Shown here: positions 1 through 5,192 of the stretch, piece after piece | How the letters are laid out: each line of letters begins with the position of its first letter | Numbering within the stretch: position 1 is the first letter of the stretch | Source of the DNA: Pedosphaera sp. | GTDB taxonomy: Bacteria > Verrucomicrobiota > Verrucomicrobiia > Limisphaerales > SIBH01 | Length of the DNA: 55,123 bases | Direction of reading: 5' to 3' | Assembly: GCA_009695285.1 (NCBI GenBank) | Contig: SIBH01000002.1 | Location: 1-55,123, forward strand | Program-made: the position numbers and the translations under genes | Notes under the pieces: model-generated | The model's input: only the letters and a program-made list of their open reading frames with translations | Database searches by the model: none | What the model was told of the DNA's origin: nothing

Positions 1-236
1 CCGCCGGGAAGGTTGGCGCGTGGGTAAGCAGCCCATCCAACGCTTGCGTCGAGACGAAGGTCTGCGGTGCCGCCGAGTAAGCGCAAGCTGGTTAGAGTGG
101 AGTTTTCAGGGGATTGCCCGCCACGACGACAAACTGGAAGCATGTATGAACATGGGACTTCATTTTGGATGCGACGGTGCTTGAGCAAAATCTTTTGCCT
201 TTGGGTAGGTTCACGCACCACGCACCACGTCTCCCA

Positions 237-578
237 TTACCGCGTCACCGACACGGCAATGTAGCGCGCCTGCGGGATGATAAATTTCTTCACCTCCACG
301 CTCACCGCTTTCGCCGAGAAATCCGTTCGAATCATCTGCGCGATGTCCACGGCCAGCGTCTCGATCAATTCCCAGTGGCAATCCTGCCCGAAGCCGAGCA
401 GTCGCTGGCAAACCGCGCTGTAGTCGATGGTCTGCGCAAGATCGTCCGCGGCCGCGGCGGTGGTGAAATCACTTTGCATTTCGACGCTCAACAACAGGCG
501 TTGAGCCTTGGACCTTTCGACCTCGGGCACGCCGACGTGATAAAACACTTCTAGATCGCAGATGGTGATTTTGTCCAT
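237..578 (-). CDS. folB: Dihydroneopterin aldolase
   Basis: MDKITICDLEVFYHVGVPEVERSKAQRL...DDLAQTIDYSAV...LIETLA...VEVKK matches FolB motifs. The real start is the ATG at 578; the longer ORF call overlaps the upstream gene. Confidence 0.93.
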   Translation of the reverse strand: MDKITICDLEVFYHVGVPEVERSKAQRLLLSVEMQSDFTTAAAADDLAQTIDYSAVCQRLLGFGQDCHWELIETLAVDIAQMIRTDFSAKAVSVEVKKFIIPQARYIAVSVTR

Positions 579-580
579 GT

Positions 581-1645
581 TCAGACTTTGGTTTGTTTGA
601 TGACCGCCTCCAACAAAATGCGAGTCGGCTGATTGAGCGACAAGGCCAGCGCCTGAGCCGGTGAAACCCACCGGAATTCCTGCGCCTCCTCGTTCAACCG
701 CACCGCCGCCGACCCGGCGCAGCGGCAGGTGTAGTTCAAGAGCACAAAATGCGCGTCCTTGTAAAACTCCCGCGAATGAATGCAGTCTTGCACCAGCACG
801 AAGCGGATGGCCGTGATCTCCAGCCCTGTCTCCTCGCGAATCTCTCGCCGCAACGCCGCTTCCGAGGTCTCGCCGAACTTCGTCTTCCCACCGGGAATGC
901 CCCACAGCCCCGACCATTTGTGCGTGTGAATCATCAGCACATCGTCGTTGTCCGGATGAAAAATCAGCGCGCCCACGGTGGCGATGGGCCGCTCCTCGGC
1001 GCCGACGCCTTTCCATTCCAGTCCGTTTCGTTCCAAAATTCCCTGCAACTCCCCGAGATGCTCCACGATCAAATCTGGTCCGCTCGCGCGCAGTTGCTCC
1101 ACCCCGTTGTAACCGGTCAGCACCGCGCAGGAATGGATGCCGCCGTGCTTGGCCGTCTCGATGTCATGCTGCATGTCTCCGATGAACAGCGTCTCGTCCG
1201 GGCGCAGATTGTTCTCCGTGAGAAGCTCGTGAATCTTCGCGCGCTTGTCCCACACCTCCAGATACGGCCGCTCCAGGAATTCGTGAAACTGGTTCCTCGC
1301 CGTCTGCGCCGCGAAATGATCCCGATGCACCGTGCTCAGGAGAAAGGTCCGCAAGCCCTCGCGCCGGCAAAATTCCAGAAACCCCCGTGCGTGCGGGAGG
1401 TCGGCCACCGAATCCTGGCACTCCTTGAAATGTCCGTGGAACCAGGCCTCCAACTGGGCCAGCGTAATGTGCGGCGTGTAACGGTCGTAGAATTTCGTGA
1501 AGGGCAGGCAGAACTCCGCGCGAAACTGCGCCAGCGACAACTCCGCAATCCCGGCCTGGCGAAAAACAAAATTAGTCGCCCGCCACACCGCCGGCAGATC
1601 ATCCACCAGCGTGCCGGACCAGTCGAAAATGATGTTGCGAATCAC
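581..1645 (-). CDS. HAD-superfamily phosphatase fused to a C-terminal Nudix hydrolase
   Basis: HAD motif I IIFDWSGTLVDD, motif IV IGDMQHDI, and a complete Nudix box GGKTKFGETSEAALRREIREETGL. GTG start; ends 2 nt before folB. Confidence 0.9.
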   Translation of the reverse strand: MIRNIIFDWSGTLVDDLPAVWRATNFVFRQAGIAELSLAQFRAEFCLPFTKFYDRYTPHITLAQLEAWFHGHFKECQDSVADLPHARGFLEFCRREGLRTFLLSTVHRDHFAAQTARNQFHEFLERPYLEVWDKRAKIHELLTENNLRPDETLFIGDMQHDIETAKHGGIHSCAVLTGYNGVEQLRASGPDLIVEHLGELQGILERNGLEWKGVGAEERPIATVGALIFHPDNDDVLMIHTHKWSGLWGIPGGKTKFGETSEAALRREIREETGLEITAIRFVLVQDCIHSREFYKDAHFVLLNYTCRCAGSAAVRLNEEAQEFRWVSPAQALALSLNQPTRILLEAVIKQTKV

Positions 1646-1651
1646 GCCGCG

Positions 1652-1680
1652 AAATTAGCAGGGCGCTCGGTGGTTGTCAG
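1652..1680 (-). promoter_or_regulatory. Sigma70-like promoter for HAD-Nudix/folB (leaderless)
   Basis: Minus strand CTGACA-17nt-TAATTT, then 6 nt to the GTG start. Confidence 0.55.
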
Positions 1681-1692
1681 TGTAATCATCGC

Positions 1693-1990
1693 TCAAGGCC
1701 GGCACAGGGCGCGCAACGCCTCGTGAATCTGGCCGGCGGCGTCGGGGCCGACGGAGTTGATCTCGCCGTAGATTTTTTTCTTGGCACCGTAGAGATAAGG
1801 CGGCTGGCGGTCCCATTCGCTTTTCGGAATGAGGTAGCCGATCTCCTCGTTGGCCAGGTCGAAAATAAATTTGATCCGGCCCGGCATCAGTTCGCGCAGC
1901 GGCGGGACTTCGACCGGCTCGACTGAAAAATTCCCGCCGGGCACGCGCTCGATGCCGCCGTTGACGATCTCCGGATAAATTTCGCTGGTC
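1693..1990 (-). pseudogene. C-terminal fragment of a ceramidase-like/uncharacterised PVC hydrolase
   Basis: EIYPEIVNGG...LANEEIGYLIPKSEWDRQPPYLYG...YGEINSVGP resembles the C-terminus of a longer PVC protein family. The upstream part of the ORF is repeat-derived or non-coding-like. Confidence 0.55.
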
Positions 1991-2049
1991 ACCCGCTTGG
2001 AAGTGCGTCGGCCCGATGTTGGCAAAACCACCTGGCCCGACCTGCTCGT

Positions 2050-2081
2050 ATTCGTGTTCATTGGTGTTGATGCGCGGTTGA
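2050..2081 (-). repeat. Degenerate 9-mer tandem repeat (AACACGGAT-type), copy 1
   Basis: Reverse complement reads tcaaccgcgcatcaacaccaatgaacacgaat, similar to the copy at 5208. Confidence 0.5.
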
Positions 2082-2242
2082 ACCGAATCCTCACGGGGTG
2101 GATTGACCGGCGCGTCTGGTGGTGGAGGTTACGCTTTTTTCCAAAATCGACGAGAGGAAAACCGCCGCCTGGAAAGCAAAAGATGCAGGCTCGTCCCCGT
2201 GGACAAACCTGCAACTTTCAGCCGGAATAATTTCTGCGGAAC

Positions 2243-3655
2243 CTATGCCCGGATGTTCATTTCGTACTCGTGCTTGGTGGTCTTGCCCGGCATCGGCACG
2301 GGGTACTTGCCGTTGGCGTCGCCAATGATCGGCGGCGGTGAATCCATCGTCCATTTGTCGATGTCCGGAGCATACTCCATGTCGTCATTGAGCATGTCCT
2401 CGTAGCGGATTTCCATGCCGGTGTGCGCGGCCTTGCGGCCCATGGAGGTGACGACGCTGGCCTGCACGCCGAAAGGGACTTCGTTGTAGGGCTTGTCATT
2501 GCGGATGGCGTTGGTGAGGTCATCCCACTCGTAGTTGTAGGCGTTCAGGTTGGGTTCCGCGTCCGGCTTCGATTGCCAGAGCATGCTTTCCCGGGTGGGC
2601 AACTGGCCCTTGTGAATGCTGGAAGGGCCGCTGAAATCGTTGGATTTGGCGGCGACCGCGATGCCCTTGGTGCCGTGAACATGGCTGAAATAAAAGGACT
2701 GCGCGCCGCTGTTGCAACGTCCGTCCATGTAAAACTTCGCACCGTCCTCGAAGGTGTATTCCACCGCGTAGGAGTCGAAGTTCTGGTCCACCCACGGATC
2801 GCCCTCGGGGCTGACGCGAAAGTGCCGCCCGCCCAGCGCCTGCGCCTTGACCGGCCAGGCGTTTTTCATCCAGCAGCAATGGTCGATGTGGTGGATGTAG
2901 AAGTCGCTGAAGCAGCCGCCGCTCGCCCAGAGGAAGCTGTGGAAGCGAGAAATCTGCCAGAGCAGCTCGCTCGGGTTGCCGGGCCAGCGTTTCGAGAAGG
3001 CCGAGGCGACCGGGCCGTGCATGCGGTATCCTCGCATCAGCATCACATCGCCGATCTCGCCGTCCTGAACGCGCTTGTGCAAGTCCTGGAGATGCCGGGC
3101 GTGACGCGACATCAGGCCGACGCCCACCTTCAAACTCTTGGCCGACGCCTCGTCGGAAAGTTTGAGCATCCGGCGGGAAGTCGGGCCGTCCGCCGTGACC
3201 GGTTTTTCCATGAAGACGTTCAGCTTTTTCTCGATCGCGTATTTGAAATGCACCCAGCGAAAAGCCAGCGGCGTGGTGAAAATCGCAATGTCACCGGGCT
3301 TCAAACAGTCCATGGCATTCTTGTATCCGTCGAACCCGATGAACCGGCGTTCTTGCGGCACATCGACTTTTTCCTTGTGACGGGCGGCGAGCCCGTTGTA
3401 GGCGTTCTTCAGTTTGTCGGGAAAGACGTCGGCCATGGCGACGAGTTTCATGGGGCCGGTCTTGACGGAGAGGGCATTGTCGGCCGCGCCGCCGCCGCGT
3501 CCGCCGCAGCCGATGAGGGCGACCTGGAGGGTGTTGTTCTCCGCTGCGAACACATGTGGAATGGTCACGCCGGCCAGCGCCGAAACGGCGGCGATGCGGC
3601 CGGAGGTTTTGATGAAGTCACGACGGGTGGTGGGAGGTGTTGGAGTATTGTTCAT
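2243..3655 (-). CDS. Gfo/Idh/MocA family oxidoreductase with Tat signal
   Basis: TRRDFIK twin-arginine motif, ALIGCGGRG Rossmann motif, MEKP motif. Confidence 0.9.
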   Translation of the reverse strand: MNNTPTPPTTRRDFIKTSGRIAAVSALAGVTIPHVFAAENNTLQVALIGCGGRGGGAADNALSVKTGPMKLVAMADVFPDKLKNAYNGLAARHKEKVDVPQERRFIGFDGYKNAMDCLKPGDIAIFTTPLAFRWVHFKYAIEKKLNVFMEKPVTADGPTSRRMLKLSDEASAKSLKVGVGLMSRHARHLQDLHKRVQDGEIGDVMLMRGYRMHGPVASAFSKRWPGNPSELLWQISRFHSFLWASGGCFSDFYIHHIDHCCWMKNAWPVKAQALGGRHFRVSPEGDPWVDQNFDSYAVEYTFEDGAKFYMDGRCNSGAQSFYFSHVHGTKGIAVAAKSNDFSGPSSIHKGQLPTRESMLWQSKPDAEPNLNAYNYEWDDLTNAIRNDKPYNEVPFGVQASVVTSMGRKAAHTGMEIRYEDMLNDDMEYAPDIDKWTMDSPPPIIGDANGKYPVPMPGKTTKHEYEMNIRA

Positions 3656-3752
3656 GGGGGACATTTCAGGACGTTGGGGAGCAGGTGTCAATGCCTGATT
3701 CGGACGGCAGTCTGACTGATCGTAGCGCCGATCTCCGGTCCCGCGTTGCACG

Positions 3753-5192
3753 TCAGGCCCTCAACTTCTTCTCCAGCATCTCGCCGATCAAGGTCGGGTT
3801 CGCCTTGCCCTTGCTGTTCTTCATCACCTGGCCCTTGAGGAAATTGAGCGCAGCTACTTTGCCGGCCTTGAAGTCGGCGGCGGAGCCGGGATTCGCGGCG
3901 ATTACGTCATCGCAGAATTTCTCCAGCGCGCCGGTGTCGCTCACCTGCGCGAGACCGCGTTTCTCCACGATGACTGCGGGCGCGTCGCCGGTGGCGAACA
4001 TGTCGGCAAAAACACTTTGCGCGATGCTGCTGCTGATCTTGCCGCCGTCCACCAGACCCGCCAGCACCTGGATGTCCGTCGGCTTGATTTTCACCGTGTC
4101 GAGCGCCGTGCCGGCCTCGGTGATTTTTGCGCGCAGATTGTTGATGACCCAGTTGGCCACGGCTTTTGGATTCTTCGCGCCCGTTACGGCCTTCTCGAAA
4201 TACGCGCCCAGCGGCACGTCCCACACGAAGGTCTGCGCGTCGGTCGCGGGCAGTTGATAATCGCGGATGAACCGATGCTTGCGCGCCAGCGGCAGTTCCA
4301 CCATGCGCGCGCGCACCTCGCCGATCCACGCGTCGCTGGGCACGAACGGCATCAGGTCCGGCTCGGGGAAATAGCGGTAATCGTGCGCGTGCTCCTTGGT
4401 CCGCATTTCCTCGGTCATCTGGGTCACGTCATCCCAGCGGCGGGTTGATTGAATGAGCTTGCCGCCCTTGCGCAGGACTTCGATCTGGCGCGGGATCTCG
4501 TATTCCAACGCCCGCCGCGCGCCGCTGAAGCTGTTCATGTTTTTGATCTCGATCTTCGCGCCGAGTTCCTTCGTGCCCACCGGGCGCACGCTCACATTCA
4601 CATCGCAGCGCACCATGCCCTTCTCCATGTCGCAGTCGCTGATGCCGCCATAGACCAGGATGTCCTTGAGCGCATTGAGATATTCGTAGGCCATGTCCGC
4701 GCTGGTGAGGTCCGGCTCGGAAACAATTTCCAGCAGCGGCACGCCGGCGCGGTTGAAGTCCACGCCGCTCGTGCGGTCGAAATGGAAATTCTTCCCCACG
4801 TCCTCTTCCAGATGGGCGCGGGTGATGCGGACGCGCGCCGCGCCGTTCACCGAACCCGCGCCGGTAAACTCGAAATCGACAAAGCCGCCCAACGTCGAGG
4901 GTTTGTCGTACTGGGTGATCTGGTAGTTCTTCGGGGCGTCCGGGTAGAAATAATTTTTGCGGTCGAACTTGGCGTAGCGGGCGATGGTGCAGTTGAGGAG
5001 CAGGCCGGTGAGGGCGGTGAGGCGCAGCGCCTCCTCGTTGGCGACGGGCAGCACGCCGGGCAGGCCGAGGCAGACGGGGCAGACGTTGGAGTTGGGGTCG
5101 GCGCCGAATTCATTGGCGCAACCGCACCACATCTTGGATTTGGTTTTGAGCTGGACGTGTGTCTCCAGCCCGATGACAGCTTCGTATTCCAT
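3753..5192 (-). CDS. gatB: Asp-tRNA(Asn)/Glu-tRNA(Gln) amidotransferase subunit B
   Basis: VIGLETHVQL, CPVCLGLPGVLP, FDRKNYFYPD, HLEED, DYRYFPEPDL, LKGQVMK...GKANP. Confidence 0.98.
   Translation of the reverse strand: MEYEAVIGLETHVQLKTKSKMWCGCANEFGADPNSNVCPVCLGLPGVLPVANEEALRLTALTGLLLNCTIARYAKFDRKNYFYPDAPKNYQITQYDKPSTLGGFVDFEFTGAGSVNGAARVRITRAHLEEDVGKNFHFDRTSGVDFNRAGVPLLEIVSEPDLTSADMAYEYLNALKDILVYGGISDCDMEKGMVRCDVNVSVRPVGTKELGAKIEIKNMNSFSGARRALEYEIPRQIEVLRKGGKLIQSTRRWDDVTQMTEEMRTKEHAHDYRYFPEPDLMPFVPSDAWIGEVRARMVELPLARKHRFIRDYQLPATDAQTFVWDVPLGAYFEKAVTGAKNPKAVANWVINNLRAKITEAGTALDTVKIKPTDIQVLAGLVDGGKISSSIAQSVFADMFATGDAPAVIVEKRGLAQVSDTGALEKFCDDVIAANPGSAADFKAGKVAALNFLKGQVMKNSKGKANPTLIGEMLEKKLRA

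Follow-up and report, generated by a model that had tools for sequence, protein, structure and literature searches.

The stretch of DNA analysed here (the window) comprises 55,123 nucleotides (nt) from Pedosphaera sp. (assembly GCA_009695285.1, contig SIBH01000002.1) and carries, near its beginning, a gene in which an HAD domain and a Nudix domain are joined in one polypeptide, followed by folB, which encodes dihydroneopterin aldolase (table 1). In folate synthesis, a Nudix enzyme (FolQ/NudB) removes pyrophosphate from dihydroneopterin triphosphate, release of the remaining phosphate is ascribed to a non-specific phosphatase, and FolB acts next (PMC1971073, PMC4161248). The last-phosphate step was still drawn as 'non-specific phosphatase' in 2007 (PMC1971073) and in 2014 (PMC4161248), and FolQ itself was found through its genomic association with folate genes (PMC1971073). 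The fusion described in the following is a strong candidate for both phosphate-removal steps, because its relatives are repeatedly found adjacent to, or fused with, FolB.

Table 1. Features of the HAD-Nudix/folB locus (positions in the window; aa, amino acids; ORF, open reading frame).
Feature	Position	Strand	Description and source
HAD-Nudix fusion gene	581..1645	-	354 aa, GTG start, TGA stop at 583..581; ORF list and translation, Pfam
HAD domain, C1-capped, Gph-like fold	1016..1645	-	residues 1-210; Pfam, Foldseek
HAD motif I, D8-W9-S10-G11-T12	1610..1624	-	nucleophile Asp kept, Asp+2 replaced by Ser; preceded by F7
HAD motif III, K134	1244..1246	-	82/83
HAD motif IV, G156-D157-M-Q-H160-D161	1163..1180	-	D157 83/83, D161 82/83, H160 77/83
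Nudix domain	584..985	-	residues 221-354; Pfam NUDIX 3.2e-21
Nudix box, G253-x5-E259-x7-R267-E-I-x-E271-E272-x-G-L	821..889	-	complete; residues 253-275, read from translation
Spacer between fusion stop codon and folB start codon	579..580	-	2 nt; sequence
folB, dihydroneopterin aldolase	237..578	-	113 aa, ATG at 578..576; Pfam FolB 2.6e-24, TIGR00525
Terminator-like hairpin after upstream oxidoreductase gene	2184..2213	-	consensus scan, pattern match only

The window is the beginning of a contig in an assembly of 114 contigs that is 57% complete; the nearest relatives are named, e.g. from Verrucomicrobia subdivision 3, Limisphaerales and Pedosphaera, and near-identical DNA is contained in freshwater and lake metagenome runs. 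The original prediction of a two-domain gene that stops 2 nt before folB is borne out by the ORF, by Pfam and by the spacer (580..579). The N-terminus of the protein (MIRN..) agrees with those of its homologues. Pfam recognizes HAD_2 at residues 5-175 (58.7 bits, cut-off 23.8), Hydrolase (41.7 bits, cut-off 26.4) and Hydrolase_like, placing the first half in the HAD superfamily, and NUDIX (PF00293) at residues 222-343 (76.2 bits, cut-off 21.1), placing the second half among the Nudix hydrolases. The AlphaFold2 model, with a mean pLDDT (predicted local distance difference test) of 94.5, consists of two domains connected by a low-confidence, flexible linker near residues 211-220.

Among 83 HAD domains of the family, and with the functional roles generally known for HAD motifs I-IV, Asp8 is present in all 83, the Ser or Thr of motif II at position 104 (Ser104 in the window) in 82 and Thr12 in at least 82. 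Canonical HAD phosphatases use a second Asp, two residues after the nucleophile (Asp+2), as the general acid/base on alcohol phosphate esters. At this position the family has Ser (78 domains), Ala (4) or Cys (1) and never Asp, and the DxDx[TV] pattern that marks the acid/base of HAD phosphatases is lacking in the window, where residue 10 is Ser. The DWSGT variant of motif I, to which the original prediction had drawn attention, is therefore a family-wide trait that defines a subfamily, rather than a local mutation, and the chemistry of the HAD domain is non-canonical. His160, considered as a substitute acid/base, is found in 77 of the 83 domains and is missing in six group-I members.

The nearest folds of the HAD domain are those of the COG0546 Gph-like HADs, with 2ah5 and 3mc1 giving template modelling (TM) scores on the target of 0.83-0.85 in Foldseek (0.77-0.85 with 2hsz included, 0.73-0.85 with 3qu5 as well); the pyrophosphatase BT2127 is also among these neighbours. 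The C1 cap and the GDxxxD form of motif IV are shared with this group, but identity is only 15-20%, Asp+2 has become Ser, and the fusion falls far below the cut-offs of the phosphoglycolate phosphatase models: TIGR01449 gives 50.4 bits against 180 and PRK13222 51.5 against 225, in both cases over residues ~142-205 only. PpaX (NCBIfam) is matched weakly over residues 140-206, far below its cut-off, and the phosphonoacetaldehyde hydrolase model TIGR01422 over residues 2-44 only (23.1 bits against 220, E 3.8e-5). The search of the PDB with Foldseek returned generic Gph-like HADs and Nudix proteins of the NudI/MutT type only, none of them matching over both domains or indicative of the substrate.

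As to the Nudix half, its box follows the consensus GX5EX7REUXEEXGU, and in 37 full-length homologues Glu259 is invariant while Gly253, Arg267, Glu271 and Glu272 are each found in at least 90%. Its fold matches NudI and Ndx1, and the nearest solved sequences are NudI (3n77, 4.6e-9) and proteins of the MutT type, with AtNUDX1 at 4.9e-5 and Escherichia coli NudB (2o1c) at 2e-4. The NudB equivalog model NF006961 gives the fusion 33.8 bits, where 103 are required. FolQ-type proteins are characterized by clustering with, or fusion to, folate genes, and this is found here through FolB, which is either adjacent or fused.

The folB gene passes the NCBIfam equivalog TIGR00525 (79.5 bits, cut-off 72.15), and the genome, at its 57% completeness, contains no other match to FolB. 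Glu21, Arg22, Tyr53, Glu73 and Lys98 are invariant in 24 of 24 FolB sequences linked to the HAD family; the catalytic roles of the Glu, Tyr, Glu and Lys residues are known from FolB of Staphylococcus aureus and E. coli. The remaining pathway was surveyed in the window's genome (G000) and in four near-complete relatives (G017, G026, G027 and G036). GTP cyclohydrolase I of type IA (PF01227) was found in none of the five and FolE2/GCYH-IB (PF02649) in all; folP is also present in all five and does not lie on the contig of the fusion gene, and folK, searched in the window's genome only, is on another contig, beside dap genes. No match above the cut-off of the NudB equivalog NF006961 was obtained in any of the five genomes. 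The rest of the pathway is represented, though dispersed, and the lack of a NudB match counts in favour of the two-step model proposed below. A 169-residue stand-alone Nudix gene of the window's genome (C4:15772-16281), located behind glmM and ~2.5 kb from folP, gives the best NudB score of the genome (31.7 bits, sub-threshold) and is a possible alternative FolQ candidate.

The association of the HAD family with FolB is far beyond chance. Related genomes enter the following counts as non-independent observations. Within the same order the fusion is found at E ≤ 1e-72 in 39 of 41 genomes, counting that of the window, and in 30 loci taken from 30 of these genomes, again with the window's, folB lies directly downstream on the same strand in 27, with one further locus ending at a contig edge. 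Among the best 80 of 574 relatives in a collection of species-representative genomes, all 80 of them from metagenome-assembled genomes named after Verrucomicrobia subdivision 3, Limisphaerales or Pedosphaera and, as close kin, of no taxonomic breadth, FolB follows HAD-Nudix in 72 and HAD in three, i.e. 75 of 80 together. Breadth comes from an even set of 401 Verrucomicrobiota genomes, of which 46 contain the HAD family (10 as HAD-Nudix and 36 as HAD without Nudix) and 367 contain FolB. FolB is present in all 45 HAD-positive genomes other than the window's, and the HAD is absent from all 34 genomes without FolB, a weak association given that kin genomes and many fusions are included. The loci of 40 of these 45 genomes were inspected, leaving out G027, already present among the order loci as L015, and four genomes of genus g35; FolB adjoins or is fused to the family in 34 of the 40, which include seven of eight HAD-Nudix loci from other families, an in-frame HAD-FolB fusion in all 21 loci inspected from genus g35, and separate, adjacent HAD and folB genes in six loci from three further families. 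Finally, an alignment of the most distant branch of the family retrieved 80 distant metagenome loci, 28-47% identical to the group-I query, and in 64 of these the linkage is again seen, as HAD-Nudix followed by FolB (40), HAD followed by FolB (20) or HAD-FolB fusion (4), while five end at a contig edge.

Thus, the conserved linkage to folate genes across Verrucomicrobiota that the original prediction would entail is strongly present for folB and was not seen for folK, folP and folE2, none of which is linked to the fusion at the window locus; a Pfam scan of the immediate neighbours of two HAD-Nudix loci from other families (L123 and L126) likewise gave no other fol gene.

The variety of architectures was surveyed in the best 150 cluster representatives from 1.84 billion proteins, which comprise 50 HAD+Nudix, seven HAD+Nudix+FolB, 16 HAD+FolB, 59 HAD-only and 18 Nudix-only proteins; both single-domain groups include many fragments. 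Pfam confirms the seven triple fusions and 15 of the 16 HAD+FolB clusters. The HAD-FolB protein of locus L140 is encoded by a clean ORF of 330 residues, and its relatives carry the names 'HAD hydrolase-like protein' or 'HAD-IA family hydrolase [Akkermansia sp.]'; the most distant branch includes a triple fusion labelled 'dihydroneopterin aldolase [Planctomycetes bacterium]', and one member of the HAD family is named from Haloferula rosea. On a quick, weakly supported and midpoint-rooted tree of the 83 HAD domains, 31 changes of architecture are counted as opposed to 42.4 with shuffled labels, and the well-supported branches force at least three changes each for HAD+Nudix, HAD-only and HAD+FolB; the architectures are interleaved on this tree, and fusion and separation of the domains have, therefore, taken place on more than one occasion. 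Two longer forms, P0126 (Smr + HAD + Nudix, 483 residues) and P0273 (RNA-methyltransferase fragment + HAD + FolB, 485 residues), may reflect run-on of the gene call rather than real fusions. In five further proteins of 268-293 residues (P0251, P0263, P0266, P0268 and P0269), the family Nudix domain is preceded by ~135-150 residues without a Pfam family, which align to the C-terminal half of the HAD domain and may be decayed HAD remnants.

In five genomes of family f36 the HAD is a stand-alone protein encoded downstream of a LOG-like gene, and in the three genomes checked FolB is ~200 kb away or on another contig. The DWSGT HAD gene of three f36 loci (L130, L133 and L135) lies downstream of a LOG-like gene of 346-347 residues ('Lysine_decarbox', PF03641), and FolB of two f36 genomes (G172 and G319) is contained in an open frame of 307-322 residues and may be fused to something else.

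Taken together, the fusion protein very probably works in the pterin branch together with FolB. Where lineages are devoid of the Nudix domain, the direct fusion of the HAD to FolB connects the HAD with the substrate or the product of FolB independently of Nudix. The model that we favour, with a probability of about 0.6, is a two-step one, in which the Nudix domain would take the role of FolQ/NudB and convert 7,8-dihydroneopterin triphosphate into the monophosphate and pyrophosphate; the HAD domain, with Asp8 as the nucleophile and Mg2+ held by Asp157 and Asp161, would strip the remaining phosphate to give 7,8-dihydroneopterin; and FolB, translationally coupled to the fusion, would cleave the latter to 6-hydroxymethyl-dihydropterin. 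What the sequences show is the architecture, a set of catalytic motifs that is intact except at Asp+2, and the recurrent adjacency or fusion of HAD, Nudix and FolB; the two substrates and the succession of the reactions are inferred. Most simply, the Nudix half would be a FolQ analogue. Prediction of a complex from the HAD-Nudix alignment and the FolB alignment returned a score of 0.00, which gives no answer either way.

Several observations weigh against the two-step model. By sequence, neither domain is assignable to a specific function, both reaching only generic families: the best matches of the Nudix half are nucleotide hydrolases of the NudI, NudG and MutT type, and those of the HAD half (phosphoglycolate phosphatase, PpaX) are partial. 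folB is the sole fol gene linked to the fusion, and even this link is absent in two of the 30 loci of the same order, in five of the metagenome-assembled loci (the best 80 of 574 relatives), in six of the 40 loci of the phylum sample (five f36 genomes and G367, which has FolB on another contig) and in 11 of the 80 distant loci. With 367 genomes having FolB and only 46 the HAD among the 401 sampled, the arrangement is also not a general solution in the phylum. Above all, the loss of Asp+2 agrees no less well with a substrate that has a better leaving group than with a monophosphate ester, and it is mainly because of this missing residue that the model is put forward with caution.

Loss of Asp+2 is easiest to tolerate when the leaving group is good, and its absence from all 83 domains favours an alternative in which the protein still belongs to the pterin branch while the HAD attacks phosphoanhydrides, either those of the terminal phosphates in dihydroneopterin tri- or diphosphate or that of the pyrophosphate which the Nudix domain liberates, and may strip all the phosphates in HAD-FolB lineages devoid of Nudix. 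The presence of the HAD pyrophosphatase BT2127 among the nearest folds, the weak match to PpaX and the 36 HAD-only genomes of the phylum sample, in which the Nudix half finds no further match at E ≤ 1e-15, point in the same direction. However, BT2127 itself retains Asp+2, as the titles of its structure entries, which include Asp13 mutants, indicate; a pure pyrophosphatase has little reason to fuse with FolB in the absence of a Nudix partner, and an HAD able to take all the phosphates leaves the repeated retention of Nudix unexplained, so that this alternative is considered unlikely. Rather unlikely, too, is a broader proposal, by which the DWSGT HAD subfamily would be dedicated to pterins and would alone strip all three phosphates in the Nudix-less HAD-FolB lineages, with HAD, Nudix and FolB forming an interchangeable module for the handling of labile dihydropterins; if true, the 'non-specific' step of folate synthesis would belong to a specific and mechanistically unusual enzyme. 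The loss of the Asp+2 acid/base could also mean that the HAD domain has little or no catalytic activity, serving the Nudix domain and FolB as a pterin-phosphate binding, scaffold or regulatory module, and the five proteins that keep only a C-terminal HAD remnant before Nudix agree with such a role; yet Asp8, Thr12, Ser/Thr104, Lys134, Asp157 and Asp161 are each found in at least 82 of the 83 domains, as in an active phosphoryl-transfer site under selection, making an inert HAD quite improbable.

That the protein is instead a house-cleaning hydrolase, whose Nudix domain would turn (damaged) (deoxy)nucleoside triphosphates into the monophosphates and whose HAD would act as a nucleotidase to yield the nucleoside, folB being close by through hitch-hiking, is suggested by the Nudix half, whose closest matches in sequence and in fold are NudI, MutT and NudG, by the occurrence of other HAD+Nudix architectures in Bacillota (one feature-similar cluster being named pyrimidine 5'-nucleotidase YjjG) and by the position of the stand-alone f36 HAD beside a LOG-like, nucleotide-processing gene. 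Hitch-hiking, however, cannot account for independent in-frame HAD-FolB and HAD-Nudix-FolB fusions in separate lineages, nor for a linkage that persists across sequences only ~30% identical, and this explanation is judged very improbable. Scarcely probable at all is an altered order of the steps, with FolB cleaving the phosphorylated dihydroneopterin and the HAD hydrolysing the resulting glycolaldehyde phosphate. This compound would be nearly isosteric with phosphonoacetaldehyde, motif I (DW[S/A]GT) resembles that of phosphonatase, and there is the weak match to TIGR01422; but the latter is limited to the N-terminal residues and stays far below the cut-off, alignments of 22 and of 37 sequences show no invariant Lys in the cap, leaving a Schiff-base mechanism unsupported, the FolB proteins have the ordinary conserved residues and E. 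coli FolB is not known to use the phosphorylated substrates.

Comparison with known systems helps to place the two-step model. FolQ (YlgG of Lactococcus lactis), NudB of E. coli and AtNUDT1 have in common with the fusion the Nudix fold, a complete Nudix box and the proposed reaction, but the Nudix domain of the fusion is not their orthologue by sequence, NudI being closer, and is here the C-terminal half of a polypeptide that begins with an HAD. A further parallel comes from Parachlamydia, a member of a related phylum of the Planctomycetes-Verrucomicrobia-Chlamydiae (PVC) group. A fused FolQ-FolB protein is listed for Parachlamydia sp. UWE25 (Table 2 of PMC1971073) and is a precedent for a Nudix pyrophosphatase physically joined to FolB, as in the present family; compared by its description, it differs in that the entry records a fusion of FolQ with FolB alone and mentions no HAD (PMC1971073). 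The new element is the HAD half. In the literature searched, which excluded most subscription journals and supplements (e.g. Additional File 1 of PMC1971073, which may list fusions), no description was found of a HAD-type dihydroneopterin monophosphatase or of a HAD-FolB or HAD-Nudix-FolB fusion.

The logic of the HAD half recalls riboflavin synthesis, where the 'non-specific phosphatase' step is filled by HAD phosphatases (YigB and YbjI in E. coli; YcsE, YwtE and YitU in Bacillus subtilis). There, as is proposed here, HAD enzymes acting on a phosphorylated vitamin precursor carry out a step that had for long been credited to unspecific phosphatases, but the pathway and the substrate are different, and the enzymes are stand-alone with a canonical DxD motif, as opposed to the DWSGT motif and the fusion to partners seen here. 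HADs without Asp+2 are known in phosphonatase (DWAGT), 2-haloacid dehalogenase and the P-type ATPases (DKTGT), all of which keep the nucleophilic Asp, as does the present family. The motif of phosphonatase is nearly identical, but no conserved cap Lys is found here, the phosphonatase model is not reached, and the genomic context is that of folate and not of phosphonate. Outside this family, HAD+Nudix proteins of another type, found by feature similarity (Atlas), are common in clusters from Bacillota; they likewise unite members of these two superfamilies in a single polypeptide, but their feature similarity is lower (0.92-0.95) and some have an additional Nudix_N domain. They are probably independent fusions with other substrates.

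In public annotations the family bears generic labels ('NUDIX domain-containing protein', 'HAD hydrolase-like protein', 'phosphoglycolate phosphatase'), the last of which is probably wrong. A HAD subfamily repeatedly fused to FolB provides a concrete candidate for the last-phosphate step and, along with it, a second type of FolQ, in a pathway in which the pyrophosphatase gene, too, is without assignment in many bacteria. The loss of Asp+2 throughout the family raises an enzymological question of its own. Akkermansia is a cultivated genus, and HAD-FolB relatives named from Akkermansia sp. make the hypothesis testable at the bench, beyond the uncultured freshwater Verrucomicrobia.

With regard to transcription, the fusion gene had been predicted to have its own promoter; a sigma-70 consensus scan of positions 1..4000, a crude tool that may not suit this phylum, found no promoter-like site (0.4 expected by chance), which neither shows nor excludes one. 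The hairpin at 2213..2184 is the nearest terminator-like signal on the strand of the fusion gene and the probable upstream limit of the transcription unit. Assembled contigs from four metatranscriptome runs cover parts of the window, with 1..207 uncovered in all four. In two of the runs, from two studies, one contig each (1445 nt covering 239..1497 and 1268 nt covering 239..1093) spans folB and crosses the junction into the fusion gene; both are ~94% identical to the window and thus come from a relative, in which one base is absent at 581. They are a weak hint that folB and the fusion gene are expressed together in lake water, since such contigs do not prove a single transcript and carry-over of DNA is possible.

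Upstream, 47 nt separate the fusion gene from the next same-strand ORF (1693..2214, up to 173 residues), which gave no family in Pfam and NCBIfam scans and is conserved within the genus only, and which therefore lies outside the conserved unit; its 5' part overlaps the hairpin, making a later start (Met52) more likely. It is preceded by a gene for a 502-residue oxidoreductase of the GFO/IDH/MocA type (2243..3751, reverse strand), probably periplasmic in view of its twin-arginine signal (TIGR01409, 19.8 bits, cut-off 16.7), and then by gatB (3753..5192). On the other side the contig begins 236 nt downstream of folB, with an open frame on the forward strand (2..184) that had no NCBIfam match and that we take to resemble the start of an IS3-type transposase. 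The contigs of the ~94% identical relative diverge from the window at about 229-239, just past the stop codon of folB, which suggests a rearrangement or insertion boundary at this point.

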